Counted from the first letter of the stretch, positions 4,720 to 28,404 are shown. The stretch is 32,000 nucleotides of DNA from Mycolicibacterium smegmatis (GCF_001457595.1 NZ_LN831039.1:90001-122000); one strand, 5' to 3'. Program-made: numbers and translations. Notes: generated by a model from the sequence alone, not told the origin.

Positions 4720-5244
4720 TGATCAGCTCGAAACACCGATGGAGAATAATTTCGGTCGGCACCGCGGTCTAGCCAGTCAGGCGTATGGTAACGATCAACG
4801 GGCCTGCGAAATTATCAATTTCATCGGACCGAGAGGTTGCATAGCCAAAGCAGCTCCTCCAGTTGAGGATCTTCGCGAGTCGGGCGGATCTCACCTTGAG
4901 ATGCAGCCTGAGTTGGTTACCAAGATAGAGCTGGTCGCCTCGGTCCCGTGGCTAGAGACGGACGATGCGGGTTTGTCGGCTCGATGTGTACCGGTCATGT
5001 CTTTCCGGCCGGAGGCGAGCCGGTGGAGCCGTGACCTGTTCTTCGCCGACATCGTTCGCACATGAGACTCGCACCGTCTGAGGTTGGCCCAGTGGTTTCC
5101 TGTCCACGCCGCCCGACTGCGGCGAATTGCCGCGCATGCGACAGGCAAGTGGCCGTTAAGCTGACTATGGATTACGCCGCGAACGCGGCGGAGGGACTAC
5201 TGGTGGGTGCGGTGCCGTGTATTTGTGCGGAGGGGGAATGACTA

Positions 5245-6042
5245 GTGGGATATCCCGAGTTCCGGGTCATTGAGGAAGCTCTCGATTGGGACCCTGCGGT
5301 GGTGGCGGTACCGCCCGTTCCTGACAACGCTGTCTATGTTCCGGGCGTCGACCCGGTGGGCTTACTTGTGAACGCCGTGATGCCGGGTATTGCGGCCGAT
5401 GTGAATCAGCAAGTTGCGAACACACGTGCGCGCGAGGAACGGTTTGCCAACAACTTGCGGTCCGCGCGAACTGCATATCATCGCACGGATAGTGCCGGTC
5501 AGGCGCAGATCGACAGCGCGGCAAGTACGATCGACCCAGCCGACGCCTTCGGAGCCGGCGTTCCCGTGCAGCCGACGTCGGCGGCCGCGCCTACCGGCGA
5601 TGCGAGCTTCAGCCAACTCACCCAGCTGATGGGCGCGGCGATGCAGGGGGTACAACAAGCAGTGCAAGTGCCGACGCAGGCTGTGGGCACGGGAGCGCAG
5701 ATGGTGCAACCCGTCATGCAGGGCGTCCAAGGAATTGTCCAGCAAAGCACGCCAGCCTCCGGGAAGTCGCAGGACGGCATGGACGGCGAGGGGGACGGAC
5801 CCGGTCATTCACGTGGCGTCGGCCATGAGGATAGATCACAGTCGTTGGCAGGTGAACGCAGTGACAACGGCACTAGGAATGATGTGCCCGAGGATGCAAG
5901 AAAGCCGGACCGGGAGTCGGCCGAGGCAATGGCCCGTGCAGGTGAAAGACCTCTGGCACCGGTCGGTGCACCTCAGGAAGATCCACTGCATCCGGCGAGA
6001 TCCCGATGGACGACACGTAATTCACCGGAGGTGGCGTTGTGA
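5245..6042 (+). CDS. espJ: EspJ-like ESX-1 substrate-type protein, copy 1
   Basis: 265 aa, GTG start. N-terminal helical region carries a YxxxD export-type motif (AYHRTD, nt 5476-5490). The centre is Gln/Ala/Val-rich (QLTQLMGAAMQGVQQAVQVPTQAVG..) and the acidic tail ends EVAL. It resembles my recollection of M. tuberculosis EspJ (..AADVYAKTDQSLG.., Q/A-rich centre). It heads a cassette containing espK and espB homologs; the paralog is at 20049. Confidence 0.6.
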   Translation: MGYPEFRVIEEALDWDPAVVAVPPVPDNAVYVPGVDPVGLLVNAVMPGIAADVNQQVANTRAREERFANNLRSARTAYHRTDSAGQAQIDSAASTIDPADAFGAGVPVQPTSAAAPTGDASFSQLTQLMGAAMQGVQQAVQVPTQAVGTGAQMVQPVMQGVQGIVQQSTPASGKSQDGMDGEGDGPGHSRGVGHEDRSQSLAGERSDNGTRNDVPEDARKPDRESAEAMARAGERPLAPVGAPQEDPLHPARSRWTTRNSPEVAL

Positions 6043-6085
6043 ACCGAAGGAGCCATTGTCGATTCCATGGCGCGGGGGTTCGTAG

Positions 6086-7219
6086 GTGAGCATGCCGCCC
6101 ACGCCTCCTGGATCTGTGCCTCCGCCTCATGGGTTTCCGCCGCCGAGTGGGGGACCAAGCGGATATCCCGGCCCGGCATTCCCATCGCGATCCTGGCAAC
6201 AGCCTCAAGGTCCGAGGCGGGGTAATGGCTGGAAGTGGGCCCTAGGGACCGTGGCCTTGGTCGCTGTAGTTGGAGTAACTGCGGCGGTGACTTCGACCGT
6301 GGTGCATAAGGAAGGTGAAAGTACTTCGCCGTCGGCGGAAGCGCCCACGTCAGCCACAGGCGGTGCGAGCGCAGAGATCGCCAGCTCTGACGACACTCGG
6401 CCGGTCACGGTAATCGCTGAAGATCCATCGTGTGCCGCGGCGACGCCGATTCTGGAGACCCGCGCGGCGATCCAGCGCAACGGTTGGGACAAACGCGACG
6501 CTTCCCTACCCGCTGCCGCATGGTCAGCAGAGGTGCGTGCGCAATATGAAGCAGTGGCGCAGTCGATGCGCCTATCCGCAGATCAATTGGTTCCCGTTGC
6601 AAAGCTCACTCCACATCGCGTCATGCGTGAGCTATACGAGCAAATTATTGCCTACTCGCGGGCGTATGCCGAGAGCGTTTCGGCGTATACGCCCGAAGAC
6701 AACGCCGCGCTGGTAAGTACTAATGCGTCAACCGCGGTATCGCTAATCTGCGTCGCTATCAAGAATGGATCCGCAGCGGCGAGAGGCCCGCTGACTGTTC
6801 AAGGGCCTACACGGTCAGATTTGCAACAAGTGGGCGATGTTTCCAGTCCAGGCCGATTTCTAACCGAGCCGAATCCAGAGTGTTCGACATGGGAAAAGGC
6901 TCTGAATGATTTTGACAATGACACGGTACAGTGGCGTGCGATTTCCGCAGATATCCCAGCAGGGGAATGGACGCCTGAACAGAAATCAATTACCGATGCG
7001 GTGATTCCTGTAATGCGCCGGCTGGCTACTCAGCAGGTACAGTCTGGAGAGCAAAGTGGGAATGCTGTCTGGCGGGACTTTGCTGATTTGTCTGCGCAAT
7101 ACCGCCTTGCATATGCGGAAGCGCTTCCGACGTATGTGGCTTCCGACGACGTTTTATCCGCAGTGTCGCTACGTTTAGGGTCGGTGGTGAGTTCAGCGTG
7201 TCGCCTAGTCGAGAAGTAG
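6086..7219 (+). CDS. Family-A paralog A3 (intact)
   Basis: 377 aa. Head MSMPPTPPGSVPPPHGFPPPSGG.., anchor RRGNGWKWALGTVALVAVVGVTAAVT. Module 1 is C116..C222 and module 2 is C266..C372, so both Cys pairs are spaced exactly 106 residues. Shared motifs are LPAAAWSAEVR / IPAGEWTPEQK and VMRELYEQIIAYSRAYAE / VWRDFADLSAQYRLAYAE. Confidence 0.85.
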   Translation: MSMPPTPPGSVPPPHGFPPPSGGPSGYPGPAFPSRSWQQPQGPRRGNGWKWALGTVALVAVVGVTAAVTSTVVHKEGESTSPSAEAPTSATGGASAEIASSDDTRPVTVIAEDPSCAAATPILETRAAIQRNGWDKRDASLPAAAWSAEVRAQYEAVAQSMRLSADQLVPVAKLTPHRVMRELYEQIIAYSRAYAESVSAYTPEDNAALVSTNASTAVSLICVAIKNGSAAARGPLTVQGPTRSDLQQVGDVSSPGRFLTEPNPECSTWEKALNDFDNDTVQWRAISADIPAGEWTPEQKSITDAVIPVMRRLATQQVQSGEQSGNAVWRDFADLSAQYRLAYAEALPTYVASDDVLSAVSLRLGSVVSSACRLVEK

Positions 7220-7281
7220 GGCCTGTCGTCGGCATTCCGAATGATGGCCGGCCCATGGCCGCCAGATGGGGGCGAGGCTGA

Positions 7282-9003
7282 ATGGCGACTCAACCCGACG
7301 AGAGCTACTACGGCGGGCAGACAGTCACCGGTGCTGGTTGGCCCCACGTTAATGAGGATGTACTCGACGCAACCGCGGATGCATTCGATGACTTGAGGAC
7401 ATTTCTGCGGGATGTAGTTGTTCCCGCTGCGGGTCGGCAGCGTACCAAGTTATCTGATCGCTGGGAAGGCGCAGGCGCGCAAGCCGCGTACGACGAGGCC
7501 AGCGCAATCATCCTCGCACACGAAGCTAGCGAACAAGCTGCTAAAGAAACTAGGGATCAGTTGCGTCTGATGTTCGCGGCGGTCAAGTTTGCGAAGACAG
7601 CTGCGAACAAAACGGCTGAGGAAGTACAGGCTGCCTGCGAGAAGATCATGGGTGAAAAGCCTCCAGCAGAGGGAGAGGACACCCGTAACAGGCGTGCAGC
7701 TGACAAAGTCAAGGAAGGCTATGAGGAGAACGTCCGCTTGGTTTCCGAGTTCTCCAAATGGTTAGCAGAGAAATTGGATGTTCCACCCGATACTCCGGGG
7801 GCGGATGGAAAAGTGCCAACGTCAGAAGCGGAGGGTAAGTCAACTTCACCCGCAGGAGAGGAAGCTGCTGTCGGCGGTAGGGGATCCGCTGGAGGAACAG
7901 GGGTTGTGGCGGATCAGCCACCCCCACCCTCGCTCTTTTCCCCCGTGGCGTACGGAGGTAAGGGTACGGCTCAAGGCACTGGCGTCGTCGCGGATTCGCC
8001 GCCTGCAGACGGTCCCGTGAAATCTGAATCGGGCGGTGGACGGGGTCCAGCCTCTGTGCCTAATGATGTTGACACCCCAGCGACTGTCGGTGGAGACAAT
8101 TCTCCATCGGCGAACAATCCCGAACCTGGCACTCCCAGCATATCGGTGTCCGGAGGCGGCGGTGCACCGTCGCCGAGCGGCGCACCGCAGGGGCCGAGAG
8201 TATCCCCAATGTCGTCGGGCACGGGCAAGGCGGACGCTGTGTCGGCTGAGACAGGTCTAGCCTCCTCCCCGACGCCAGCTACAAGTGGCGGGGCGCCGCA
8301 GAACCCCGCAGAGCAGTTCCAAAAAGGGTTGGCAGATGCGGCGAAGAACGGTGGGTCGCCACAGACGCTGTCGTCTACCCCGTCGCAGCCGCTTGGCGGA
8401 CCGCCAACGACACAGCCACTCGGCACTCCGCCCCCAACGGCAGGCCCTACCGCTCCGCCTACGACCGGAGGCCCGCCAGCACCGGTCGCGCAGGCAGCAG
8501 GTGGACCTGGCGGCGGGGCTGGGCCAGCACCTGTGGCGCCACCCCCAAGCGGAGGTGTCCCAGGTGGGGCGGTCCCGTTGGGACCTCCACCGACTCCTCC
8601 ACTAGCGGCGCCTGTGACGACGCCGTCGCCGGCGGCCGGTCCGCCTGTTGCTCCCACGGGTGCGGCAGCTGGTGCGGCCGGTGGTGGAGGTGCACAGGTC
8701 GCGCCGATTCCGGTGTCGGCGGCACGAGCCGAACGCGACCTTGCCCAACGAGCGGTTCGACGGTCGGGCGTGGATCCGATGGAGACTGCGCGCAGGATTG
8801 CAGCCGCGCTGAACGCCCCTGGGATGACCAACGTCGAGGATTTCAAGTTCTTCTGGGTCACAGGCCTCACGACCGACGGAAAGATCGTCGTCGCCAACAA
8901 CTACGGAATTGCCTACATCCCTCAGCAGGTGCATTTGCCTGAACAGGTGCATATGGCATCTGCCGATGGGCCGAACACAACGGGAAGACCTTGCGCGCAG
9001 TGA
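7282..9003 (+). CDS. espK: EspK-like protein, N-terminal/central part (copy 1); ends prematurely relative to M. tuberculosis EspK
   Basis: 573 aa. N-terminal helical domain with WxG (DRWEGAG), then a long Pro/Ala/Gly/Ser-rich linker. This is followed by [47 protein letters not shown]. That matches the EspK (Rv3879c) region I recall as [47 protein letters not shown]. The ORF terminates as ..[16 protein letters not shown]. Confidence 0.8.
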   Translation: [573 protein letters not shown]

Positions 9004-10517
9004 TCGCGACAGAGGATCAGCTGAAAAACTCCGATGCCGGCGTGCACCACGAGGTTTTGAAGCCTGAGGACATCCCTGAGAGCGGCAAGATGGCTGGTCG
9101 CGATCGCCTGCAGGTGATCGCTCCGGATGTGAGCTCGCAGTTGGCGCGGATCAGCGACACCGACCTGGTGAGCGTCCTACCGCCGGCGCCCGCTGATTCG
9201 AATCCGCCAGAAGACCGTCGGAAATCGTTGTGGGACAATGTCTGGAAGCCGTTGGCAAGTCGTTCCGCGAAGCGAGGGGAGAGGCACCTGACGGCCTTCG
9301 TGGCGTACGCGTCACACGCCCAGGAACACGCGCTTTACGCAGCACACACGGCAGCGCTCCCTGATGAGCAGCGGCAGGCGATCCGCGAGTTCATCTATTG
9401 GCAGCACGTCGGCCAATTGACGGCCGACGCCTTGGCCCCCGCGTGACGGTGCCAGTGATTCGACACGGAAAGCTGTTGCGCGCCGGTCGGGAAATTGACG
9501 CAAAACGCTCGGCCGAGTCGACCTTATGATTGCCTACGGAACACAACCGGGCGAGTTGGTGTTGACGGCAGCTGTTTGCGGGGGTGGCTTTGGATTCGCC
9601 AGTTTCGCGAATCTTCTGCCGCATCCGGTGTAGCGGACGCAGGGAGGGTGATCGGCTATGAGCGAGGAGTTGCAGTATGAGCTCCCAGGGCTGGAACGAA
9701 AAGCCCATGAATGCGAGTCGACTCGTCCCGAGGGCCCCGGCGACGCGACGAAGCCAGACGAACTCGCCACCACCGCGAGTGTCTATAGCAAGCTCATGGT
9801 GTCTGCCGCCAAACTGAAAGCGACGTTTGCAGCGGGAGACCGCGAGGGCGAGCGTATTGCGGCCGCCATCCGCGCCGCGGCGGGCGCCTACCAGAAGATC
9901 GAAGAGCAGAAGGCTGCCGAACTGAACCGTCAGATGAATGGCAGCGACGCCCCGCAGCCTGCGGCCGAGGCGGTGGTCCCTGACATGTCCGGTATCCCTG
10001 GCCCGTTGACCATCCCGTCCATGGAATACCCATCTGCTGCGGCTGCCGCGGACGAAATGGATTGGGAGGCAGCCGCGAGGATCATACATAGCGGCGATAC
10101 GCAGGCCCTGTCGATGAAGTACTTCCGAGATCAGTGGCGGGACTATCAGTCCACGCTGGAGGGCCACGGGCGGCATTTTGCGAACCCGGCGGAAGGTTGG
10201 TCGGGCGCAGCCGCAGAAACCTGTGCTGAGGCTCAGCGGAGACTGTCGACGTGGTGGGCTGATATGGGTGCGGAGTGTGGCCGTCTGGCCCAAGAGGCCA
10301 CGACATTTGTCGATGCGCACGACAAGTTGGTCGCGAACCACCCCACCTTGGAAAACGTCAGAGAATTCGAGGAAACAGAGTGGGCGTCTGAGTGGGATCG
10401 GCAAAACGCCTGGGCGATGCTGCAGGAGCAGTCGGAGGACGCGCTCGAGGCTTACGCAAACGGCAGCCAAATCCAAGAAATCCGTCCAGGGAAACCGCCG
10501 TCGATCGGTGGCCTTCC
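8476..10517 (+). repeat. Near-identical 2,042-bp core block, copy 1 (espK 3' part, espK-C ORF, 210-bp spacer, espB 5' 860 nt)
   Basis: Line-by-line comparison with 23305-25346 showed only three differences (9010 A/G, 9026 A/G, 9032 C/G). Mismatches become frequent immediately outside both ends (8475 G/T; 10518 C/T onward). Confidence 0.85.
8991..9446 (+). CDS. espK: EspK C-terminal domain encoded as a separate ORF (copy 1)
   Basis: 151 aa from TTG 8991, or 148 aa from GTG 9000, which overlaps the upstream stop as GTGA. [43 protein letters not shown].. matches the EspK C-terminus I recall ([43 protein letters not shown]..). The frame is -1 relative to 7282-9003. Confidence 0.75.
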   Translation: [151 protein letters not shown]

Positions 10518-11220
10518 CGCGGTGAATGACGGCGACGTCCAAGCCACGCCGACTTCAAGCCCGGGAGGACCAGGCGGACCGGGCAGTGGCTCGGGCGGCG
10601 GGGGCGGTGGTGGAGGCGGCGCGCCTGAGATGCCGGAGATGCCGTCGATGGAACCGGCTGTATCGCCTGTCGGGAATTCCCCAGGGGGAGAACAACCTTC
10701 AGGTTCGCCTTCCGGTGGTGGCTCGCCGTCTGGCGGTTCACCATCTGGTGGTTCGCCCTCTGGTGGTGGCGCGCCCTCCGGGGGTGGCATGCCGGAAGGC
10801 GGCCTTCCCACGGATATGCCTGGCGGCCCAGAGATTCCGGGTCTCGACGATCCCAGCCTGAACCCGGCCAGCGCCGGTGGTGGCGGCGGAGGGGGAGTTG
10901 GCGGTGGTGGCGGCGGGATGCCTGCCGCACCGCTGGGCCCCCCTGTCGGCGCGGACTCCGTGGCCCCTTCGCCGTCCAGCGCGCGTGGCGGCGCCGTGGG
11001 CGTCCCGGGTGGCCCGGCCGGCGGCGGTATGGGCGGCATGATGGGCGGCGGCATGGGTGGAATGGGCGCGGGCCACGGCCAGGGCGGCCAGGGCAAGGAG
11101 AAGCGCCGCGATCCGAAACTGTCTCCAGACGAGGACCTTTACACGGAAGACCGTGCTTACACCGAAGGGGTCGTCGGCCATCGTCCGCGCAGGGAGAAGG
11201 ACAGCGGCAAGCAGCAGTAA
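9658..11220 (+). CDS. espB: EspB-like ESX-1 substrate, copy 1
   Basis: 520 aa. The N-terminal helical PE/PPE-like domain carries YxxxE (AYQKIE, nt 9889-9903) and WxG (EGWSG, nt 10198-10206). The C-terminal half is Gly/Pro/Ser-rich low complexity. The conserved tail DEDLYTEDRAYTEGVVGHRPRR compares with M. tuberculosis EspB ..ALYTEDRAWTEAVIGNRRRQ. SD-like GGGAGGG precedes the ATG. Confidence 0.9.
   Translation: MSEELQYELPGLERKAHECESTRPEGPGDATKPDELATTASVYSKLMVSAAKLKATFAAGDREGERIAAAIRAAAGAYQKIEEQKAAELNRQMNGSDAPQPAAEAVVPDMSGIPGPLTIPSMEYPSAAAAADEMDWEAAARIIHSGDTQALSMKYFRDQWRDYQSTLEGHGRHFANPAEGWSGAAAETCAEAQRRLSTWWADMGAECGRLAQEATTFVDAHDKLVANHPTLENVREFEETEWASEWDRQNAWAMLQEQSEDALEAYANGSQIQEIRPGKPPSIGGLPAVNDGDVQATPTSSPGGPGGPGSGSGGGGGGGGGAPEMPEMPSMEPAVSPVGNSPGGEQPSGSPSGGGSPSGGSPSGGSPSGGGAPSGGGMPEGGLPTDMPGGPEIPGLDDPSLNPASAGGGGGGGVGGGGGGMPAAPLGPPVGADSVAPSPSSARGGAVGVPGGPAGGGMGGMMGGGMGGMGAGHGQGGQGKEKRRDPKLSPDEDLYTEDRAYTEGVVGHRPRREKDSGKQQ
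10702..10788 (+). repeat. Imperfect in-frame tandem repeat (15-21 nt units) encoding GSPSGG-type units in the EspB-like tail
   Basis: The read units are ggttcgccttccggtggt / ggctcgccgtctggc / ggttcaccatctggt / ggttcgccctctggtggt / ggcgcgccctccgggggtggc. They encode GSPSGG GSPSG GSPSG GSPSGG GAPSGGG. The paralog at 25540-25630 has a related but different unit series. Confidence 0.8.
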
Positions 11221-11324
11221 CGTCGTCAGGAAACCATGTCCCGCGCAACATGCTGCCAACCATGTTCTGAGGTCAAGGCTTTGGGACATTCCCGACGCCG
11301 GCGACGTAAACGTGTGTGCGGTGA

Positions 11325-11633
11325 GTGTTAAGGTTCGACGTGCTTGCCGCCACACGTACTTATCTCCTGCTGGGATTCTTCGTTCTGTGTGGAGCATGGA
11401 TTCTGCAGGCGACATCGCACGGCGTTCTCGTCACCATCGCAATCGTCGCGCTGTATGTGATCGGAATCGGGCTGATAGCGGTCGGTTGCTACTACTACCG
11501 GCAGCTTCCTTGGCCGGAACCTGAACGGCAGAGGAAGGTCGGCGCACCGGTCGCCGTTTTCGGCTTTATCGTCATCGCGATCAATCTGGGGGCCTTCGCA
11601 GTCTTCCTTATCTGGGAATACCTGCTGAAATGA
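11325..11633 (+). CDS. Small 3-TM membrane protein (102 aa), copy 1
   Basis: Three hydrophobic helices: YLLLGFFVLCGAWILQA, GVLVTIAIVALYVIGIGLIAVGCYY and VAVFGFIVIAINLGAFAVFLIW. It is conserved (most residues identical) with the ORF at 26147-26455 in the same position after espB. The start is ambiguous (GTG 11325 or GTG 11340). Confidence 0.65.
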   Translation: MLRFDVLAATRTYLLLGFFVLCGAWILQATSHGVLVTIAIVALYVIGIGLIAVGCYYYRQLPWPEPERQRKVGAPVAVFGFIVIAINLGAFAVFLIWEYLLK

Positions 11634-11673
11634 ACGTCCTGAGCGCCTGGCCTATTGAGGGCTGGGCGATCGA

Positions 11674-11785
11674 TCAGCGACCGTGCATCTCGCCGTCGAG
11701 GTCACCCGCCTTGGCCGCATCCGTGCGCTCGTACTTGGTGGCCGCTTCGTCCAACTTCTCGGCAAGTGACGTAGAAACGTTTTGC
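11674..11785 (-). pseudogene. 3' stub of an EspC/EspF-like gene, truncated by the IS1096-like element
   Basis: The reverse strand reads ..GDLDGEMHGR* with stop TGA at 11674-11676. At nucleotide level it matches the 3' end of the intact gene at 26468-26785 (..GDLDGEMHGS*) up to the IS left end at 11786. The 5' two-thirds are absent. Confidence 0.8.
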
Positions 11786-11849
11786 GGCTCTTCGCACTTG
11801 ACGGTGTAGAGACGATCAGCTGCTTTCGCGCTGTGATCGAGGGGTCTGG

Positions 11850-12602
11850 TTGGCTTGGGGTGTGCCGGAGAAGAAGCGGAAGAGCAAGAGGAAGAGCGGA
11901 GTGTCCGGGGGCAGTGTGGACCTGGCGTTGCTGCAGAAGCTAATGGCCGACGCTGGTCGGAACGTGTTCGCGGGAATGTTCGATGAGCCGACGCCCGAGG
12001 TGCGGGCGGTGCCGGATCGTGCGCGGGGCTTCCGGGTGCGCGTCGACCTGATGTACGCCAAGCCGCCGATCTGGCGTCGGCTGGACCTGCCGGGCGACCT
12101 CATGCTCGATGAGCTCCATGTTGTGCTGCAGGTCGTTATGGGCTGGCAGGACAGTCATCTGCATAAGTTCGGTGTCGGGGCGGACCGGCGGACCCGTGCC
12201 TACTTCGTCACCGGGTTTGATCTCAGCGAAGGCGACGACGGTGTCGTCGAGGACAGCGTGCGCCTCGATCAGGTGGTGTCCGATAAGGGCGAGCGGTTGT
12301 TCTACGATTACGACTTCGGCGACGGATGGGACCACGTGCTCGTGGTCGAAGACGTTTTCGATGATCCGCCCCCGGCTGCGGTGTGTCTGACGGGAAAGAT
12401 GGCCTGTCCGCCGGAGGACTGTGGTGGCCTGGGCGGCTATGAGGAGTTGGCTGCGTGGGTTCGCGGCGGGTACGACCCGCGGGAAACGCCGATGGGACTC
12501 GGTGCGCAGGAGATGAGGGACTGGCTGCCCCGGGGCTGGCACCCCGACCGTTTCTCGGTGGCCGAGACCAATGACGCTCTGGCCGCGTTGAACACGCGTT
12601 GA
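11850..12602 (+). CDS. tnpR: IS1096 TnpR-type passenger protein (pRiA4b ORF-3-like domain)
   Basis: 250 aa (TTG 11850 or GTG 11862). It has a Lys/Arg-rich N-terminus. The motifs FRVRVDLMYAKPPIWRRLDLPGDLMLDELHVVLQVVMGWQDSHLHKF..YDYDFGDGWDHVLVVE..CPPEDCGG are the conserved signature of the pRiA4b ORF-3 / IS1096 TnpR family. Confidence 0.85.
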   Translation: MAWGVPEKKRKSKRKSGVSGGSVDLALLQKLMADAGRNVFAGMFDEPTPEVRAVPDRARGFRVRVDLMYAKPPIWRRLDLPGDLMLDELHVVLQVVMGWQDSHLHKFGVGADRRTRAYFVTGFDLSEGDDGVVEDSVRLDQVVSDKGERLFYDYDFGDGWDHVLVVEDVFDDPPPAAVCLTGKMACPPEDCGGLGGYEELAAWVRGGYDPRETPMGLGAQEMRDWLPRGWHPDRFSVAETNDALAALNTR

Positions 12603-12609
12603 GGATTCT

Positions 12610-13932: not shown

Positions 13933-14042
13933 GTCGAGGTCTTTCAGATGGATGGCGTAGGAACCTCCATCATCGGAAGACCTCGACCCCTATCCCGGCA
14001 CCGACGCGCCGACGACCTCTACACCCTCAACTGCGAAGAGCC

Positions 14043-14925: not shown

Positions 14926-14980
14926 CGATGAACCTCCGTACCAATACCGCTATGGCGCAACCCAATACCTCCACCGTTAC

Positions 14981-16804: not shown

Positions 16805-16855
16805 CAACTTGGCAACTTGGCTTGATCTCGGGGCGAGAACGGAATCACCTGAACC

Positions 16856-19427: not shown

Positions 19428-19436
19428 GCGGCCCAA

Positions 19437-19790
19437 GGTATCCAACGACAACCCCTACAGCGAGTCCTGGTTCAAGACCTTGAAGTATGCGCCGGCGTTC
19501 CCGGAACGCTTCGAATCCATCCATCACGCGAGGTCATGGACCGATTCGTGCAGTGGTACAACCATGAACACCGCCACAGCGGCATCGGGCTGCACACACC
19601 CGCCGATGTGTTCTACGGCCTCGCCGGCGGGAAAGACACCCAGCGCCGAGCCGTGCTCGCCGACGCCAGGGCGCGCCACCCACGCCGATTCGGCCGCGAC
19701 ACCGCACCCAAGGTCATCGACCTACCTGAATCCGCGGCGATCAACCCACCCAAACCGGCCGAACAGGAGACCGAAACGGAAGCCGCTTAA
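19437..19790 (+). pseudogene. IS3-family OrfB, 3' part, with an additional frameshift
   Basis: This part continues ..(K)VSNDNPYSESWFKTLKYAPAFPERFESIHHARSW in one frame. The expected ..DRFVQWYNHEHRHSGIGLHTPADVFYG.. then continues in the next frame to TAA 19788-19790. That implies a 1-nt indel near 19535-19540 (tgg-ac region). Confidence 0.75.
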
Positions 19791-20048
19791 CACCCACTGG
19801 ACTCAAACACCTTGACAAATTCCGAGGGGCCGTCTTTATCAGGCTGAAGGTGTGCCAGGGATAGTCGTAGAGGCATGACCCTCGCATGGGGTGGGTCCGG
19901 GCGCTGCTGTATCCAACGCCGATGACGTTGCGGAATTTGGCGTGTCCGTACTGCCATACCGACCGTTAAGCTGAGTGTGGCTAACGTTGCGCAGGTGGGT
20001 CGGACTACATCGCGGGTGCGCCACGGGTTCGTGTGAGGGGAAGGGCTA

Positions 20049-20852
20049 GTGGGATATCCCGAGTTCCGGGTCATAGAGGAGGCGATCGGATGGGATCCGG
20101 CCGAAGTGACGGTTCCCCCCTTGCCTGACAAGGCAGTCGCTGCGCCGGGTGGTGATCCGTTGAGCGCTCTAGTGGGCGCGGTGATGCCGAACCTCGCCAA
20201 CGACGTTAATAAGAAGGTTGCCGAAGCTCGGGCGCGAGAGGAAAGTTTCGCCTCGAACCTGAGTTCTGCTCGTACTGCATATCACGGGGCGGACAGCGCT
20301 GGTCAGGATCAAATCAATGCGGCGGCAGACCAGATTGACCCGGCCGATGCCTTTGGTGCCGGCGCTCCGGTGGAAAGTGCAAACGCTCTGTCATCGGGTG
20401 AGGGTGGTTTCAGCCAGCTCACCCAGTTGATGGGTATGGCGATGCAGGTGGGGCAGCAGGCGGCGCAGATGCCCATGGGCGCGGCGGGCACGATCGGACA
20501 GATGTCTCAGCCCCTGATACAAGGTGTCCAAAGCATCGTTCAACAGGCCGCGCAGGCATCGGAGGGCTCACGCCAAGGCGGTCAGGGCGAGGGCACGGGA
20601 GGAAGCTTTGATAGTGGGGTAGGCGCAGTGGCTCCTGAGTTGAAGCCTGAGGGCGGCAATCACGAGGAAAATGCGGCTGCCGACGGTGGCACGAGGCTTG
20701 ATGAGGAAAACGACCTGTCCGAGGATGCCGCTGGGGCAGATGTTGGTGAAGGGACGCCGGCGCCGGTTGATGCTCCGCTGGATTCGCAACATGTTGAACA
20801 GAAGCAACGACATCAAAGGATCGCGGAAGCCGCGCCGGAGGTCGCATTGTGA
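20049..20852 (+). CDS. espJ: EspJ-like protein, copy 2
   Basis: 267 aa. The first 27 nt are identical to copy 1 (gtgggatatcccgagttccgggtcat). It has the YxxxD motif AYHGAD, a Q/A/M-rich centre and an acidic tail ending ..QKQRHQRIAEAAPEVAL. It is clearly paralogous to 5245-6042 but much diverged in its C-terminal half. Confidence 0.6.
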   Translation: MGYPEFRVIEEAIGWDPAEVTVPPLPDKAVAAPGGDPLSALVGAVMPNLANDVNKKVAEARAREESFASNLSSARTAYHGADSAGQDQINAAADQIDPADAFGAGAPVESANALSSGEGGFSQLTQLMGMAMQVGQQAAQMPMGAAGTIGQMSQPLIQGVQSIVQQAAQASEGSRQGGQGEGTGGSFDSGVGAVAPELKPEGGNHEENAAADGGTRLDEENDLSEDAAGADVGEGTPAPVDAPLDSQHVEQKQRHQRIAEAAPEVAL

Positions 20853-20907
20853 GTAACGGTGGAGGTATTGGGTTGCGCCATAAAGGTATTGGTACGGAGG
20901 TTCATCG

Positions 20908-22059
20908 GTGAGCTTTTCTCCTCCTCCTCCTCCTCCTCCTCCTCCTCCCGGTTCCGTGCCGCCTCCGAACGGCTTCCAGCCGCCGCAAGGCGGGCTGAGT
21001 GGACATGGATACCCTGCTGATGCTTGGCAACAACCTCCGAGGTCTCCGAAGCGGGGCAACGGATGGAAGTGGATCTTGGGCGGAGTAGCACTGGTCGTCG
21101 TGATCGGAGTGACGGCAGCTGTGACGTTGTCGATCGCTAACAGGGGCCCTGGGAACAATGGGTCGAGTTCAAGCGCGCCATCGCCTTCGGTTAATGAGAC
21201 AGCTAGCGCAGAAGTCGCCAGCGCCGACGACACCGGACCCGTCTCTGTAATCACCGACGATCCGTCGTGTGCAGCGCAGCAGCCCATTCTCGATACGTAC
21301 GCGAGAGCATCCCAAAATGGTTGGCAGGACAGGGATCCCAATATTCCTCGCGCTAGCTGGACGCCCGAGGTGCGTACGCAGTATGAAGAAGCTGCGCAGG
21401 CGATGAAAAACGCCGCCGACCAGTTAGTGCCAATCGCTAAACTAACGCCGCACCGGGTGATGCGGGAACTATACGAACAATTCATCGCTTATGCGCGTGC
21501 CTATGCTTCGGCTGTACCGAATTACGACCCTATTGACGATAACATGGCCATCGTTGCTAACGCGACAGGCGACGCCATAACCTTTATATGTGCCGCGATC
21601 CAAAATGGTTCCGCGGGGGCCCGCGGTCCTCTAGTCGAGAAGATCCCAAGCCAGTCCTTCATCCAGTCGGATATAGACATCGAGAACCCCAGCCGATTTC
21701 TGCTGGAAACTAATCCAGCCTGTTCCACCTTGGATTCTGCGCTGGCCAGCTTCCAGGCTGATACGTCGGCGTGGCTGGAAACCGATCCAGGGATTCCCGC
21801 GAGCGACTGGTCACCAGAACAAAGGGAACGGAATGAGCAGGTAGCCCCTGTGATGCGGCGGTTCGCAACTCAACTGCAATCGGTTGGCAGACAAAGTGAC
21901 AACGCAGTTTTTCGTGATTTCGCGTATCTTTCAGCGCAGTATCGGAAAGCTTACGTCTCGGCTCTGCCAAGTTATGTGCCAGCGGATCGGTACCTTGCCA
22001 CCGTGTCGCTGCGCCTGGCAGGAGCGTTAAGCGCGGCATGCTCGGCAGCGGGAGCTTGA
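20908..22059 (+). CDS. Family-A paralog A5 (intact)
   Basis: 383 aa, GTG start. MSFS(P)10GSVPPPNGFQPPQGGLSG.., anchor RGNGWKWILGGVALVVVIGVTAAVT. It has two Cys-bracketed modules (..DDPSCAAQQP....TFICAAI; ..NPACSTLD....LSAACSAA) with the IPASDWSPEQR and VMRELYEQFIAY / VFRDFAYLSAQY motifs. Confidence 0.85.
   Translation: MSFSPPPPPPPPPPGSVPPPNGFQPPQGGLSGHGYPADAWQQPPRSPKRGNGWKWILGGVALVVVIGVTAAVTLSIANRGPGNNGSSSSAPSPSVNETASAEVASADDTGPVSVITDDPSCAAQQPILDTYARASQNGWQDRDPNIPRASWTPEVRTQYEEAAQAMKNAADQLVPIAKLTPHRVMRELYEQFIAYARAYASAVPNYDPIDDNMAIVANATGDAITFICAAIQNGSAGARGPLVEKIPSQSFIQSDIDIENPSRFLLETNPACSTLDSALASFQADTSAWLETDPGIPASDWSPEQRERNEQVAPVMRRFATQLQSVGRQSDNAVFRDFAYLSAQYRKAYVSALPSYVPADRYLATVSLRLAGALSAACSAAGA
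20920..20946 (+). repeat. (CCT)9 trinucleotide microsatellite encoding a poly-Pro run at the 5' end of A5
   Basis: Nine perfect CCT units followed by CCC give P10. The A4 paralog has only four Pro codons at the same place (rc of 14905-14925 reads gtg agc ttt cct cct cct cct). Confidence 0.9.
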
Positions 22060-22116
22060 CCGATTTCAGGATCGCGTTCTGGGTTGAAACTCTGGTTTAC
22101 GAGGTGACAGGCACGG

Positions 22117-23832
22117 ATGGGGTCAAAGCAGCCTGATGATAGTGAGTACGGTGGCCAGACCGTTACTGGAGCAGCGTGGCCACACATCGATGAAGAGCTA
22201 ATCGGTATCGCAGCAGATTCCTTCGGAGACCTCGCTATCAATCTGCGGGACAACGTCATTCCATCTGCTGGTCGCCAGCGAATGAGACTGTCCGACTTCT
22301 GGGAAGGCAACGGCGCTGAAGCGGCATTAGAAGAAGCTTCGAAAATAATCGATTATCATGAGCTTAGCCAGGCCGCCGCCGAGCGGGTGAAGGCTCGATT
22401 AAAGCTCATCGAGAAAAAAATCGCAGATACAAAAGACTTGGTAAATTCCACCGCCCGTCGTGTTCAGAAGATCTGCGAAGACATTCAGAACGAGGGATTC
22501 CCTTCTATCCCATTCAGGGACACTCGCTCAGAGAGAATTGACGACGAGATACTGAAAGGGCTAGAGGAAAACATCGGCCACGTTTCCGATGCCGCAATTT
22601 CTCTAGCGCAGCATCTGCATGTGCCATCCGGGACGCCTGGTGCTGACGGAAAGGTGCCGGATAACACCCCCGAAACGAGACCGCCCAAGTCTCATGACAC
22701 ACAGGACGGTGTCGTCCACCCGATCAACAAGTTCACGGCTCCGAGTCCGAACTATCCAGCTTCACCACCACCCGGAAAGGGGCAGGACGGTGTTATTCGT
22801 CCGGAGAGCAAGAGTCCCGGCCCGGCCCCCGTTGAAGGCGGGCCTCCCACACCTGCTCCGAAGGCACAGCAGGACGGAGACGTAGCTCCGCGACAGAAAC
22901 AGGAGGCACCGGTCCCGGCACCTGGGGTCCCGTCAAATCAGGCCCCTCAGCCAAGTTCTCCTGCTGGTCCGGTGTCGCCAGGCTCGCCGGCCGCTCCCGC
23001 GCCTACAAGCAGCGGTGGCGGACCAAAGAACCCTTCGCTGACAGGACTTTCGGGGACGTCAGAGTCGCCCGCATCGCCAAGTACGCCAGCGCCGACAAGC
23101 AATCCAGCGGCATCAGGTCTCCAGCCAAAGACTCCCTTGGAGCAGTTCCAAAAAGGACTTTCGGATTCAGCAAAGACAAGTGGGTCGCCACAGACGCTGT
23201 CATCTACGCCGTCACAGCCGCTCGGTGGACCGCCCACGACACAGCCACTCGGGGCTGCACCGCCAACAGCAGGTCCTGCCGCACCACCCGGTGCTGGCGG
23301 ACCTCCAGCACCGGTCGCGCAGGCAGCAGGTGGACCTGGCGGCGGGGCTGGGCCAGCACCTGTGGCGCCACCCCCAAGCGGAGGTGTCCCAGGTGGGGCG
23401 GTCCCGTTGGGACCTCCACCGACTCCTCCACTAGCGGCGCCTGTGACGACGCCGTCGCCGGCGGCCGGTCCGCCTGTTGCTCCCACGGGTGCGGCAGCTG
23501 GTGCGGCCGGTGGTGGAGGTGCACAGGTCGCGCCGATTCCGGTGTCGGCGGCACGAGCCGAACGCGACCTTGCCCAACGAGCGGTTCGACGGTCGGGCGT
23601 GGATCCGATGGAGACTGCGCGCAGGATTGCAGCCGCGCTGAACGCCCCTGGGATGACCAACGTCGAGGATTTCAAGTTCTTCTGGGTCACAGGCCTCACG
23701 ACCGACGGAAAGATCGTCGTCGCCAACAACTACGGAATTGCCTACATCCCTCAGCAGGTGCATTTGCCTGAACAGGTGCATATGGCATCTGCCGATGGGC
23801 CGAACACAACGGGAAGACCTTGCGCGCAGTGA
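22117..23832 (+). CDS. espK: EspK-like protein, N-terminal/central part (copy 2)
   Basis: 571 aa. The N-terminal domain with WxG (DFWEGNG) is only about half identical to copy 1 and is noticeably AT-richer. From nt 23305 onward the sequence is essentially identical to copy 1, including the same premature end ..MASADGPNTTGRPCAQ*. Confidence 0.8.
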   Translation: MGSKQPDDSEYGGQTVTGAAWPHIDEELIGIAADSFGDLAINLRDNVIPSAGRQRMRLSDFWEGNGAEAALEEASKIIDYHELSQAAAERVKARLKLIEKKIADTKDLVNSTARRVQKICEDIQNEGFPSIPFRDTRSERIDDEILKGLEENIGHVSDAAISLAQHLHVPSGTPGADGKVPDNTPETRPPKSHDTQDGVVHPINKFTAPSPNYPASPPPGKGQDGVIRPESKSPGPAPVEGGPPTPAPKAQQDGDVAPRQKQEAPVPAPGVPSNQAPQPSSPAGPVSPGSPAAPAPTSSGGGPKNPSLTGLSGTSESPASPSTPAPTSNPAASGLQPKTPLEQFQKGLSDSAKTSGSPQTLSSTPSQPLGGPPTTQPLGAAPPTAGPAAPPGAGGPPAPVAQAAGGPGGGAGPAPVAPPPSGGVPGGAVPLGPPPTPPLAAPVTTPSPAAGPPVAPTGAAAGAAGGGGAQVAPIPVSAARAERDLAQRAVRRSGVDPMETARRIAAALNAPGMTNVEDFKFFWVTGLTTDGKIVVANNYGIAYIPQQVHLPEQVHMASADGPNTTGRPCAQ

Positions 23833-25346
23833 TCGCGACGGAGGATCAGCTGAAGAACTCGGATGCCGGCGTGCACCACGAGGTTTTGAAGCCTGAGGAC
23901 ATCCCTGAGAGCGGCAAGATGGCTGGTCGCGATCGCCTGCAGGTGATCGCTCCGGATGTGAGCTCGCAGTTGGCGCGGATCAGCGACACCGACCTGGTGA
24001 GCGTCCTACCGCCGGCGCCCGCTGATTCGAATCCGCCAGAAGACCGTCGGAAATCGTTGTGGGACAATGTCTGGAAGCCGTTGGCAAGTCGTTCCGCGAA
24101 GCGAGGGGAGAGGCACCTGACGGCCTTCGTGGCGTACGCGTCACACGCCCAGGAACACGCGCTTTACGCAGCACACACGGCAGCGCTCCCTGATGAGCAG
24201 CGGCAGGCGATCCGCGAGTTCATCTATTGGCAGCACGTCGGCCAATTGACGGCCGACGCCTTGGCCCCCGCGTGACGGTGCCAGTGATTCGACACGGAAA
24301 GCTGTTGCGCGCCGGTCGGGAAATTGACGCAAAACGCTCGGCCGAGTCGACCTTATGATTGCCTACGGAACACAACCGGGCGAGTTGGTGTTGACGGCAG
24401 CTGTTTGCGGGGGTGGCTTTGGATTCGCCAGTTTCGCGAATCTTCTGCCGCATCCGGTGTAGCGGACGCAGGGAGGGTGATCGGCTATGAGCGAGGAGTT
24501 GCAGTATGAGCTCCCAGGGCTGGAACGAAAAGCCCATGAATGCGAGTCGACTCGTCCCGAGGGCCCCGGCGACGCGACGAAGCCAGACGAACTCGCCACC
24601 ACCGCGAGTGTCTATAGCAAGCTCATGGTGTCTGCCGCCAAACTGAAAGCGACGTTTGCAGCGGGAGACCGCGAGGGCGAGCGTATTGCGGCCGCCATCC
24701 GCGCCGCGGCGGGCGCCTACCAGAAGATCGAAGAGCAGAAGGCTGCCGAACTGAACCGTCAGATGAATGGCAGCGACGCCCCGCAGCCTGCGGCCGAGGC
24801 GGTGGTCCCTGACATGTCCGGTATCCCTGGCCCGTTGACCATCCCGTCCATGGAATACCCATCTGCTGCGGCTGCCGCGGACGAAATGGATTGGGAGGCA
24901 GCCGCGAGGATCATACATAGCGGCGATACGCAGGCCCTGTCGATGAAGTACTTCCGAGATCAGTGGCGGGACTATCAGTCCACGCTGGAGGGCCACGGGC
25001 GGCATTTTGCGAACCCGGCGGAAGGTTGGTCGGGCGCAGCCGCAGAAACCTGTGCTGAGGCTCAGCGGAGACTGTCGACGTGGTGGGCTGATATGGGTGC
25101 GGAGTGTGGCCGTCTGGCCCAAGAGGCCACGACATTTGTCGATGCGCACGACAAGTTGGTCGCGAACCACCCCACCTTGGAAAACGTCAGAGAATTCGAG
25201 GAAACAGAGTGGGCGTCTGAGTGGGATCGGCAAAACGCCTGGGCGATGCTGCAGGAGCAGTCGGAGGACGCGCTCGAGGCTTACGCAAACGGCAGCCAAA
25301 TCCAAGAAATCCGTCCAGGGAAACCGCCGTCGATCGGTGGCCTTCC
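23305..25346 (+). repeat. Near-identical 2,042-bp core block, copy 2
   Basis: Partner of 8476-10517 (offset 14,829). Confidence 0.85.
23820..24275 (+). CDS. espK: EspK C-terminal domain ORF (copy 2)
   Basis: The protein is identical to the ORF at 8991-9446 (three synonymous nucleotide differences). It has the same GTGA stop/start overlap with the upstream ORF. Confidence 0.75.
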   Translation: MRAVIATEDQLKNSDAGVHHEVLKPEDIPESGKMAGRDRLQVIAPDVSSQLARISDTDLVSVLPPAPADSNPPEDRRKSLWDNVWKPLASRSAKRGERHLTAFVAYASHAQEHALYAAHTAALPDEQRQAIREFIYWQHVGQLTADALAPA

Positions 25347-26052
25347 TGCAGTGAATGACGGTGATGTCCAGGCGAGTCCGACCTCCGCGCCCGGCGGACC
25401 TGGAGGACCCGGCAGCGGCACACCCGGCGGCGGTGGAGCCGGCGGTGGTGGCGGCACCCCTGAGATGCCGGAACTGCCGTCGACAGACCCGTCGATGTCG
25501 CCGATGAGCGCGAATTCCGCAGGGGAAGAGCAGTCTTCGGGCTCACCGTCCAGCGGCGGCTCGTCGTCCGGTGGTTCGCCATCTGGCGGTTCGCCTTCAG
25601 GTGGCGGTGCGCCGTCCGGTAGCGGGATGCCGAGCGGTGGCCTTCCGTCAGACATGCCGGGCGGCCCTGAGATCCCCGGTCTCGACGATCCCAGCCTGAA
25701 CCCGGCCAGCGCCGGTGGTGGCGGCGGAGGGGGTGTCGGTGGCGGTGGTGGTGGAATGCCTGCTGCGCCACTCGGTCCCGCCGTCGGCGCGGACTCGGTG
25801 TCACCGTCGCCGTCGAGTACCCGTGGTGGTGGCGTCGGAGTTCCGGGCGGCCCCGGCGGTGGTGCGGGCGGCATGATGGGTGGCGGCATGGGTGGTATGG
25901 GCGCCGGTCACGGTCAAGGCCAGGGCAAGGAAAAGAAGCGCGACCCGAAGCTTGCTCCGGATGAGGACCTCTACACGGAGGACCGCGCTCACACCGAAGG
26001 CGTCATTGGTCATCGCGCGCGCCGGGAGAAGGACAGTGGAAAGCAGCAGTAG
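24487..26052 (+). CDS. espB: EspB-like ESX-1 substrate, copy 2
   Basis: 521 aa. Residues 1-295 are identical to copy 1 (through ..LPAVNDGDVQA). The Gly/Pro/Ser-rich tail is diverged with small indels. The conserved C-terminal DEDLYTEDRAHTEGVIGHRARREKDSGKQQ is present. Confidence 0.9.
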   Translation: MSEELQYELPGLERKAHECESTRPEGPGDATKPDELATTASVYSKLMVSAAKLKATFAAGDREGERIAAAIRAAAGAYQKIEEQKAAELNRQMNGSDAPQPAAEAVVPDMSGIPGPLTIPSMEYPSAAAAADEMDWEAAARIIHSGDTQALSMKYFRDQWRDYQSTLEGHGRHFANPAEGWSGAAAETCAEAQRRLSTWWADMGAECGRLAQEATTFVDAHDKLVANHPTLENVREFEETEWASEWDRQNAWAMLQEQSEDALEAYANGSQIQEIRPGKPPSIGGLPAVNDGDVQASPTSAPGGPGGPGSGTPGGGGAGGGGGTPEMPELPSTDPSMSPMSANSAGEEQSSGSPSSGGSSSGGSPSGGSPSGGGAPSGSGMPSGGLPSDMPGGPEIPGLDDPSLNPASAGGGGGGGVGGGGGGMPAAPLGPAVGADSVSPSPSSTRGGGVGVPGGPGGGAGGMMGGGMGGMGAGHGQGQGKEKKRDPKLAPDEDLYTEDRAHTEGVIGHRARREKDSGKQQ

Positions 26053-26146
26053 GAACCGTGATCAGACCAGTGCGCTACGAAACATGTTCAAAGCACGTGG
26101 GTTTGGGAGCGCCAGGAGAGCAGCAGCGAGTACGTATGTGCGGTGA

Positions 26147-26455
26147 GTGTTAGGGTTCGACGTGCTTGCCGCCACACGTACATATCTTCTGCTCGGCTTC
26201 TTTGTCTTGTGCGGAGCATGGATTCTGCAGGCGACGTCACACGGCGTTCTCGTCACTGTCGCAATTGTCGCGCTGTATGTGATCGGAATCGGGCTGATAG
26301 TGGTCGGTTGTCACTACTACCGGCAGCTTCCTTGGCCGGAACCCCAAAGGTATAAAAAGGTCGGGGCTCCGCTTGCGGTGTTCGGTTGGATCGTGATCGC
26401 AATCAATCTTGGGGCGTTCGTCGTCTTTCTTGTTTCGGAATATCTACTGAAATGA
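26147..26455 (+). CDS. Small 3-TM membrane protein (102 aa), copy 2
   Basis: Paralog of 11325-11633 with the same three hydrophobic helices. Its stop lies 12 bp from the stop of the convergent espC/F-like gene. Confidence 0.65.
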   Translation: MLGFDVLAATRTYLLLGFFVLCGAWILQATSHGVLVTVAIVALYVIGIGLIVVGCHYYRQLPWPEPQRYKKVGAPLAVFGWIVIAINLGAFVVFLVSEYLLK

Positions 26456-26467
26456 ACGGGCGGCGCT

Positions 26468-26785
26468 TCAGCTGCCGTGCATTTCGCCGTCGAGGTCACC
26501 CGCCTTGGCCGCATCCGTGCGCTCATAATTGGTGGCTGCTTCGTCCAACTTCTCGGCAAGTGACGTAGAAACGCCCTGCATAGCCGCTGCCGCCGCGTCA
26601 CGTGAAAAGCCAGCGGCACCGATCGCCGCAATGGTGGGCGCGCACACAGGACCGTGGGTCACTGTGACCAAGGCGGTCGTATTGTTCGTGGCCTGCGCTG
26701 CCGTCGCGATGTTCTCAACGATCTGCCGCTGACGTTCCGACAGTTCACGCAGCGCTGCTGCCGTTACTTTCAGATCACCGCTCAC
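26468..26785 (-). CDS. EspC/EspF-like small ESX-1-associated protein
   Basis: 105 aa, GTG start with AAGGGA upstream. MSGDLKVTAAALRELSERQRQ..VTVTHGPVCAPT..LAEKLDEAATNYERTDAAKAG resembles M. tuberculosis EspC (..VAITHGPYCSQF..AAKIYSEADEAW). It lies immediately downstream of an EspA/E-like gene, as espC does after espA. Confidence 0.65.
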   Translation of the reverse strand: MSGDLKVTAAALRELSERQRQIVENIATAAQATNNTTALVTVTHGPVCAPTIAAIGAAGFSRDAAAAAMQGVSTSLAEKLDEAATNYERTDAAKAGDLDGEMHGS

Positions 26786-26818
26786 CGGGAGTCCCTTTCG
26801 TCGAGCCTCGGTACTTCA

Positions 26819-27553: not shown

Positions 27554-27627
27554 GTGGCGTCATCCCTCCCAGGTTCTGGAACAGCCTAACAACGCGCAGA
27601 CATGCTCCGATGCACCAATTTTCAAGG

Positions 27628-28296: not shown

Positions 28297-28404
28297 GTAA
28301 CTACCGCGCAGAAAAGTGATGACCGCCCACGTCAGAAGTGCCGCCTCGATGATGCCGAGGCAGGTCAGCAGGATTCGCCGTTGCGCTTTCGTGGCCGTCT
28401 CCCG

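Follow-up and report, generated by a model that had tools for sequence, protein, structure and literature searches.

Introduction

The subject of this analysis is a 32,000-nucleotide (nt) stretch of the Mycolicibacterium smegmatis chromosome (GCF_001457595.1, NZ_LN831039.1:90001–122000; hereafter the window, with positions counted from its first letter), which probably represents the eccD1-to-mycP1 part of the esx-1 locus, with a compound form of the mating-identity, or self-identity, region (mid) between 1.2 and 26.6 kb. To our knowledge, no self-identity determinant other than Msmeg0070 is known for distributive conjugal transfer in mycobacteria. The mid locus was mapped to Msmeg0069–0071 and Msmeg0076–0078 in esx1 (Gray et al. 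2013; PMC3706393), and Msmeg0070 alone was later reported to confer self-identity, with partners of the same allele failing to conjugate and disruption of the gene permitting self-mating (Clark et al. 2022; PMC9040860). Self-identity was demonstrated for the mc2155 and MKD8 alleles and reported to be independent of ESX-1 secretion; the orthologs are highly polymorphic, and duplications, paralogs, and insertion sequence (IS) elements in mid were already described in the same work (PMC9040860). Apart from Clark et al. 2022, a literature search returned no report of espB or espK duplicated in M. smegmatis.

Within the window, mid keeps its published position between eccD1 and the espB–eccE1 arm, its triad of an Msmeg0069-like gene (J), an Msmeg0070-family gene (A), and espK, and its IS clusters. 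The clone differs from the published locus in having two complete modules and three intact Msmeg0070-family genes. Myxococcus traA and Proteus ids are polymorphic bacterial kin-recognition loci, and Neisseria pilE/pilS and yeast MAT/HML/HMR are variation systems based on silent cassettes and gene conversion. The kin-recognition loci share with A a surface-exposed, highly polymorphic determinant, but have no relationship to it in sequence or fold; bacterial loci of this kind were cited as parallels in PMC9040860. The silent-cassette systems resemble the window in placing several copies of a variable gene, full or partial, close to a recombination tract that is conserved, with evidence of gene conversion. 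They differ in that neither a machinery for directed switching nor the logic of an expression site is seen here, and in that conversion here covers the conserved part and not the variable part. In M. tuberculosis, espJ, espK, and espB are single-copy genes. The espJ-espK-espL-espB segment of M. tuberculosis ESX-1 (Rv3878–Rv3881c) has a homologous EspK C-domain and the EspB PE/PPE domains, followed by the YbaB/EspL-like, eccE1, and mycP1 genes, but differs in gene orientation and in that no Msmeg0070 homologue was detected in the M. tuberculosis complex (PMC9040860). The EspK C-domain chaperones EspB (PMC9811218).

Two modules and three intact Msmeg0070-family genes

An earlier sequence-only reading of the window described two ESX-1 substrate cassettes that included an unassigned "family A". 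The gene set stands, while A is re-assigned from cassette gene of a substrate locus to the Msmeg0070 family of membrane identity proteins (Pfam PF27060, Mycobact_ESX1_assoc), with precomputed matches on A0, A1, A2, and a C-terminal fragment. Since family A is the Msmeg0070 self-identity determinant, the region is the known mid locus. The ordered triad of Msmeg0069-like gene, Msmeg0070-family gene, and espK occurs twice, and the position is that of mid, with eccD1 at 3–1175 to the left and eccE1 and mycP1 at 29.3–32.0 kb to the right. Six family-A segments are present, of which three are intact (A0, A1, and A2); the earlier inventory had missed one of the intact genes and two fragments.

1274–2368, plus strand: A0, intact Msmeg0070-family gene, type I, 364 amino acids (aa), directly after eccD1 with no J before it (PF27060)
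2559–2877, plus strand: N-terminal fragment (~106 aa) of a type II A gene, cut by the insertion sequence ISL3-a (alignment; tblastn)
4336–4719, plus strand: C-terminal fragment of a type I A gene, a pseudogene with an in-frame stop (PF27060 on a 93-aa open reading frame (ORF); alignment)
6086–7219, plus strand: A1, intact, type II, 377 aa (PF27060)
14044–15103, minus strand: inverted relic c3, consisting of A3 (5′ three-quarters of an A gene) at 14044–14925, a spacer, and the 3′ end of a J gene at 14981–15103
20908–22059, plus strand: A2, intact, type II, 383 aa (PF27060; 99.7% identical to M. goodii MBU8825033.1)

The A sequences fall into two types. Type I (A0, mc2155 Msmeg0070, and the allele of the strain at locus L087) has a mutual identity of 52–61%, type II (A1, A2, A3, MKD8, the Rabinowitchi-like allele, and locus L092) of 50–65%, and identity between the types is 37–43%. 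A0 shares 52% identity with mc2155 Msmeg0070 and 61% with the L087 allele, but no more than 39–42% with A1 and A2; A1 is 57% identical to A2, 50% to MKD8_0070, and 40% to mc2155 Msmeg0070, and A3 is 65% identical to A2 (relic c3, at 82–92% nt identity to 20730–21506, is annotated as a 311-aa protein). Across the window, the A genes are 37–53% identical to mc2155 Msmeg0070 and MKD8_0070. Sequences recovered from mc2155-like, MKD8, and Rabinowitchi-like loci agree with Fig. S2 of PMC9040860, and compared with the five alleles published there, none is present in this clone. More than 950 family-A homologues were found, and the nearest alleles outside the cluster, like the best A matches among GTDB species representatives, are at most 58% identical. 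In local Pfam and NCBIfam scans, neither J nor A was assigned to a family, and nor were the N-terminus of EspK and the 102-aa protein described below; the PF27060 model is apparently absent from the local set.

An AlphaFold2 (AF2) model of A2, built on 94 homologues (predicted local distance difference test score (pLDDT) 83.6), has the anatomy of the Msmeg0070 family, with a proline-rich N-terminus, a single transmembrane (TM) helix, and a C-terminal domain of ~270 aa. The N-terminus is disordered, the TM helix spans residues 54–77, and residues 110–383 form an ordered, all-helical domain with pLDDT >90. Internally, this ectodomain repeats a helical unit of ~115 residues in tandem (hhalign probability 99.7%, E = 2e-26), and the family has four invariant cysteines, two per repeat, with one each at the repeat start and end. 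Searching the model against the PDB found no matching fold. Multiple A segments within 10 kb on either side occur in three of 87 other family-A loci, and two EspB genes occur in none of the 87. One of the three is [Mycobacterium] fortunisiensis TNTM28, where five tandem full-length A genes (396, 392, 376, 377, and 376 aa) occupy 9809–16127 of locus L012. A solitary PF27060 paralog of 323 aa, far from esx1 and beside ABC-transporter genes, is carried both by this clone (CP089215.1; locus L113, 10001–10972) and by a Rabinowitchi-like strain (CP089233.1; locus L114). An A0-like gene or remnant lies at the same place as A0 in M. goodii (locus L090, 7830–8781) and in strain Nishi (locus L115, 7370–8302).

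Apart from A0 and the relics, the A genes sit in two cassettes (5153–11779 and 19963–26573), both in plus orientation and each with the ORF order J, A, EspK (as two overlapping ORFs), EspB, and 102-aa protein.

5153–5244, plus strand: leader of cassette 1, beginning with the motif CCGTTAAGCTGACTATGG
5245–6042, plus strand: J1, the Msmeg0069-position (espJ-like) gene, PE-like N-terminus, 265 aa (YHRTD at residue 78; weak EspC/PE Pfam matches)
7282–9446, plus strand: espK copy 1, ORFs 7282–9003 and 8991–9446, split by a 59-bp deletion at ~8968 (EspK_C, PF27215)
9658–11220, plus strand: espB copy 1, 520 aa, C-terminal half divergent (Pfam EspB_PE, EspB_PPE)
11325–11633, plus strand: 102-aa protein copy 1 (predicted 3-TM in the earlier description)
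11674–11779, minus strand: 3′ fragment (~35 codons) of an EspC-family gene at the right end of cassette 1 (94% identical to 26468–26573)
19963–20048, plus strand: leader of cassette 2, beginning with the motif CCGTTAAGCTGAGTGTGG
20049–20852, plus strand: J2, 267 aa, a PE-domain protein in the Msmeg0069 position (Pfam PE at 23 bits, cut-off 22; YHGAD at residue 78)
22117–24275, plus strand: espK copy 2, ORFs 22117–23832 and 23820–24275, split by the same 59-bp deletion at ~23797
24487–26052, plus strand: espB copy 2, 521 aa, the canonical M. smegmatis allele
26147–26455, plus strand: 102-aa protein copy 2 (predicted 3-TM in the earlier description; 99% identical to the mc2155 version)

The two co-oriented cassettes of the same gene order had been proposed from the sequence alone, and they are borne out by self-BLAST, a repeat search, and ORF calls. 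The self-comparison of the window, suggested in the same place, gave three matches, two direct and one inverted: 8311–11779 with 23140–26573 (90.9% over 3478 nt, E = 0), 5153–5744 with 19963–20545 (68%, E = 1e-55), and, inverted, 14348–15103 with 21506–20730 (82%, rising to 90–92% over the 5′ 540 nt). A repeat finder recovers the same pairs at a constant spacing of ~14.8 kb. The cassette starts, first placed at about 5105 and 19905, are refined slightly, as homology begins at 5153 and 19963, exactly at a conserved 18-nt motif. The inverted partial third copy is present at 14044–15103 (formerly 14043), cut on both sides by IS ends, and an IS cluster does separate the cassettes.

The 18-nt motif, CCGTTAAGCTGANTNTGG, occupies 5153–5170 and 19963–19980, ~90 nt before each J start, and occurs exactly twice in the window, with 0.00 occurrences expected. 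Loci of the mc2155-like, L087, and M. goodii types keep it upstream of J, despite saturated coding sequences, and this conservation across saturated haplotypes suggests a shared regulatory element. The motif is a candidate promoter or operator of the mid operon, and nothing else in the window hints that both modules may be transcribed. Scanning the two leaders for sigma-70 promoters and for terminators returned no match, though such scans are uninformative for mycobacteria. The J proteins that follow can be considered espJ-like by position (first gene after eccD1 or the leader) and by their PE-like features; both have a YxxxD motif at residue 78.

The assignment of EspB to the ESX-1 substrate family is well supported by Pfam (EspB_PE and EspB_PPE at 79 and 88 bits, against cut-offs of 29 and 28) and by the match to the M. 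smegmatis EspB crystal structure (PDB 4WJ2, E = 6e-192). Both copies have the motifs YQKIE (YxxxE) at residue 78 and WSG (WxG) at residue 181. EspB misses the NCBIfam equivalog NF052471 (176 bits against a cut-off of 450) while the exact protein is named EspB by NCBI, and the model seems tuned to slow-grower EspB. Identity to mc2155 EspB is 91.8% for copy 1 and 97.7% for copy 2, and the exact copy 2 protein also occurs in L087, a strain with a different mid core.

Mosaic identity and the origin of the modules

The sequence-only reading took the cassettes for diverged duplicates. A recent tandem duplication would have even, low divergence; identity in 100-nt windows along the cassettes instead ranges from 33 to 100% in sharp steps, with 33–71% over J, A, and EspK's N-terminal two-thirds, ~100% in the middle, and ~80% to the right. 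In the left halves (J, A, and EspK N-terminus) synonymous sites are saturated (proportion of synonymous differences, pS, 0.68–0.83) and the nonsynonymous proportion, pN, is below pS; J1 and J2, for example, share 58% aa identity with a pS of 0.68. On the right, the C-terminal halves of the two EspB proteins are 87% identical (synonymous divergence, dS, 0.92) and the 102-aa proteins 88% identical (dS 0.54). Between these lies a near-identical tract of 2,042 bp with three differences between the cassettes.

8476–10517, plus strand: near-identical tract, cassette 1 arm (EspK C-domain, intergenic region, EspB residues 1–287)
23305–25346, plus strand: near-identical tract, cassette 2 arm

The edges of the tract are abrupt, with 20 mismatches in 70 nt on the left, dense mismatches directly on the right, and a neighboring dS of 0.5–0.9. 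A near-identical tract with sharp edges inside old, diverged paralogous sequence points to gene conversion, and the comparison of the two arms indicates that the segment from the EspK C-domain to the EspB PE/PPE domains was homogenized in this way.

Comparison with other esx-1 loci of the M. smegmatis group, also suggested by the earlier reading, revealed different relatives for the halves. Positions 19848–25480 of the window (J2, A2, EspK2, and EspB to approximately residue 330) are 99–100% identical to M. goodii JAHBOM010000014.1 (locus L090, 8940–14640), and J2 is 99.6% identical to the M. goodii protein; the flanks of the two loci are only 88–94% identical. M. goodii has a single cassette, directly after eccD1 and an A0-like remnant. 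This near-identity on a diverged background indicates a recent inter-species transfer of the mid core. From the EspK C-terminus onward, cassette 2 is also 95–99.8% identical to other M. smegmatis strains, and its right arm is 99.8% identical to L087, a strain with a different type I core. The espK N-terminal region of cassette 1 is 99.7% identical to a relic in strain Nishi. Halves with different relatives imply that the modules are separately derived mid haplotypes and not a duplication that diverged later. The mosaic identity, saturated pS, and separate relatives thus replace the diverged duplicates with distinct old haplotypes brought together and joined by a central gene-conversion tract.

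The esx1 locus of Nishi (CP080273.1; Fig. 5 of PMC9040860) is a close described counterpart to this layout. It shares eccD1, the A0-like gene, and a J-A-K-EspB module (EspB of 521 aa) with its small ORF (97 aa as called). These are followed by an IS cluster in which ISL3-a recurs (99.7%) along with the beginning of the A C-terminal fragment, a cassette 1-type espK (99.7%), and a second EspB (522 aa). Nishi differs in that its second module is without J, A, and the espK 5′ end (lost to an IS256 element), and in that its first module is another haplotype, with 70–75% nt identity to the modules of the window. With two espB genes in Nishi, compound mid regions of this kind were already present in a published genome.

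The 59-bp espK deletion and the sister assemblies

Both espK copies of the window are interrupted by a 59-bp deletion between CGATG microhomologies, which shifts the frame inside the EspB-binding C-domain, and neither copy retains an intact C-terminal EspB-binding domain. The two complete chromosomes CP082846.1 and CP089215.1 contain the whole 32-kb arrangement at 99.9% identity, with at most three single-nucleotide polymorphisms (SNPs) outside repeated sequence in 32 kb, so that the three are independent assemblies of one clone. The state of the deletion (copy 1/copy 2) is deleted/deleted in the window, deleted/intact in CP082846.1, and intact/intact in CP089215.1. As it differs among assemblies of one clone, the two-ORF espK is no stable property of the clone; the description of espK as two ORFs is accurate for both copies of the window, but does not extend to every copy of the sister assemblies, in which intact copies occur. 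The intact EspK C-domain of the sister copies matches M. tuberculosis EspK (PDB 8AKO_B; E = 6e-74, residues 2–244). Nearly all SNPs between the three assemblies fall within ~1 kb around the 59-bp insertion/deletion, inside the tract, which holds roughly 13 of them. These patchy differences could reflect ongoing conversion in sublines of the clone, or the mixing of reads between near-identical repeats during consensus building or polishing.

In strain mc2155 (CP001663.1; locus L101, 14999–15355 and 19245–20333), a 118-aa EspK_C fragment lies beside espB, with the full espK across the IS cluster. The reference strain therefore also has a partial duplication of the EspK C-terminus.

The agreement of three complete assemblies excludes an assembly duplication, which the sequence-only reading had named as an outcome that would overturn it, though it does not establish an independent natural recurrence of the layout. 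Three other sequences, the draft contig L086 and the Joint Genome Institute (JGI) metagenome contigs L088 and L089, at first resembled independent single-cassette strains, with the left half of cassette 1 and a cassette 2-like right half. This interpretation was dropped when sliding windows showed 100% identity to the window on both sides, with a scramble in the low-complexity EspB C-terminus. A sister draft, L108, threads the repeat the other way and joins the left half of cassette 2 to the right half of cassette 2. The likeliest account of all four is that short reads from the same clone were threaded through its 2-kb repeat. Such paths mimic single-cassette strains and are a trap for comparative work on this locus.

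Interpretation and alternative explanations

In the explanation favored here, each of the two complete, co-oriented modules would supply a conserved leader, J, an A identity protein, EspK, EspB, and the 102-aa protein, accompanied by a third intact A gene beside eccD1 and three A-gene relics, with junctions at IS ends. The left halves would be old allelic haplotypes of the hypervariable mid core that were acquired separately, the core of module 2 through the 5′ part of espB being nearly identical to that of M. goodii, and the shared middle would have been homogenized later by gene conversion. By homology to the tested proteins, the A proteins are predicted to sit in the membrane, with a helical, disulfide-stabilized outer domain that would mark the cell as self and, between cells with the same allele, would block distributive conjugal transfer. 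The EspK C-domain would chaperone EspB for ESX-1 export, again by homology. Should the intact A genes be expressed, the clone could show up to three identity alleles. The functional outcome may be an identity set by several alleles, a pair of EspB variants, or an inert relic.

Features of this kind are already known, and the established picture of mid is extended here and not changed. The additional elements appear to be the haplotype content, in which three alleles are intact, the conversion tract with its sharp bounds, spanning the C-domain of EspK and the N-terminal domain of EspB, and the near-identity of one core with M. goodii. A clone whose three intact alleles (one type I and two type II) are deeply divergent would permit a test of whether self-identity depends on any shared allele or on the whole set. 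The near-identity of the M. goodii and M. smegmatis cores on diverged backbones shows that identity modules move between species. The position of the tract suggests selection, or simply opportunity, to keep the chaperone-substrate pair interchangeable and the identity part different.

Several observations weigh against this explanation. The shared layout comes from one clone, so that its confirmation is a technical one and does not make it a state that recurs in nature. The identity of the tract in this assembly could partly be a polishing effect, with the sister assemblies differing only inside the tract, and both espK copies of the window are frameshifted. Among the fetched loci, there is no close source for the right end of cassette 1 (10518–11779), for which the best matches are 78–82% identical. 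Cassette 1 is without a downstream EspC-family gene, and the IS cluster may cut it off from the transcriptional context of the right arm.

There is a real though minor chance that IS activity stranded cassette 1 as an inert relic, as with c3 and the A fragments, and that only cassette 2, contiguous with the conserved right arm of esx-1, is functional. The region contains five IS elements and three clear pseudogene fragments, cassette 1 ends within a truncated EspC-family gene, its espK is frameshifted in two of the three assemblies, and cassette 2 has the canonical allele in its right arm. Set against a relic are the intact J1, A1, EspB1, and 102-aa ORF of cassette 1, its retained leader motif, the intact espK copy 1 of CP089215.1, and a conversion tract indicating that the copies still interact at the DNA level.

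Slightly less probable is the original proposal of a tandem duplication of an ESX-1 substrate cassette, through which one machine would export two substrate sets (EspJ-like, EspK, and EspB with different C-termini). The motifs fit, with YxxxD in J1 and J2 and YxxxE plus WxG in both EspB proteins, as do the unlike EspB C-terminal halves and the separate conserved leader of each cassette. This proposal is difficult to reconcile with A, among the most divergent of the genes, being a membrane-anchored identity protein and no recognized substrate, with left halves that were not born by duplication, with the frameshift in both genes for the EspB chaperone, and with the reported independence of mid self-identity from ESX-1 secretion (PMC9040860).

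It would be a more ambitious, and rather improbable, extension of the separately acquired haplotypes to regard the compound locus as a working identity repertoire, in which several Msmeg0070 alleles are shown at once and the label can be changed by gene conversion or by a 14.8-kb pop-out. In such a repertoire, the change of label may be enabled by the identical 2-kb sequence repeated in direct orientation, together with silent or partial copies, and the patchy SNPs and 59-bp differences among the three assemblies may be footprints of ongoing exchange.

A recent in situ duplication after which J, A, and the N-terminus of EspK came under very fast diversifying selection is highly improbable; kin-recognition genes are expected to diversify quickly and the central tract is nearly identical, but saturated synonymous sites in the left halves and a cassette 2 core 99.6% identical to an M. 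goodii locus on an 88–90% backbone do not fit such a history. Least credible of all is a second cassette created by assembly duplication or misjoining, for although the short-read drafts L086 and L108 thread the repeat inconsistently and the sister assemblies disagree inside the tract, three complete chromosomes agree over the whole 32 kb, each half has its own close relatives elsewhere, and left halves only 40–70% identical cannot be a duplicated pile of reads.

Insertion sequences and flanking genes

All cassette boundaries adjoin IS ends. The N- and C-terminal A fragments (2559–2877 and 4336–4719) flank ISL3-a.

2878–4335, plus strand: ISL3-a, ISL3 family (transposase 2956–4323; Pfam DDE_Tnp_ISL3, Zn_ribbon_ISL3, HTH_Tnp_ISL3)
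11786–14041, minus strand: ISL3-b, ISL3 family (transposase 12610–13932, minus; Pfam matches)
15122–19806, plus strand: IS3-family element (orfA 16856–17284; orfB 17284–18000 and 19422–19790; Pfam rve)

ISL3-a begins at 2878 and has the terminal inverted repeats GGCTCTTCGCA...TGCGAAGAGCC. The 31-nt terminal inverted repeats of ISL3-b lie at 11781–11811 and 14017–14047, between unrelated flanks, and those of the IS3-family element at 15122–15152 and 19776–19806. Two further elements are nested in the latter: an IS1380-family element near its left end (transposase 15277–16725, minus; NCBIfam IS1380, E = 3e-99; Pfam DDE_Tnp_1_4) and, inside orfB, an IS256-family insertion at 17933–19434 (Pfam Transposase_mut; inverted repeats 17933–17963 and 19404–19434). 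No matching target-site duplications were found at ISL3-a, ISL3-b, or the IS3-family element, and by their sequence the junctions fit IS-mediated rearrangement.

Outside the compound region, the conserved parts of esx-1 continue on both sides.

3–1175, plus strand: eccD1, 3′ part, anchoring mid on its left (Pfam EccD, E = 1e-35)
26468–31993, minus strand: conserved right arm of esx-1 (Pfam families on called genes; exact proteins under M. smegmatis names)

The exact proteins have CKG83xxx accessions, and the strain is probably the type strain NCTC 8159. In a sister assembly, the upstream genes are eccB1-eccCa1-eccCb1-PE-PPE-esxB-esxA-espI-eccD1. The right arm consists of a full 105-aa EspC-family gene (26468–26785, minus; PF10824 match), an EspA/E-family gene (26819–27553), two unnamed genes, the YbaB/EspL-like gene (28943–29275), eccE1, and mycP1. 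Among the mobile elements, ISL3-b carries a passenger gene with a PRiA4_ORF3 domain (11850–12602, plus) inside its inverted repeats.

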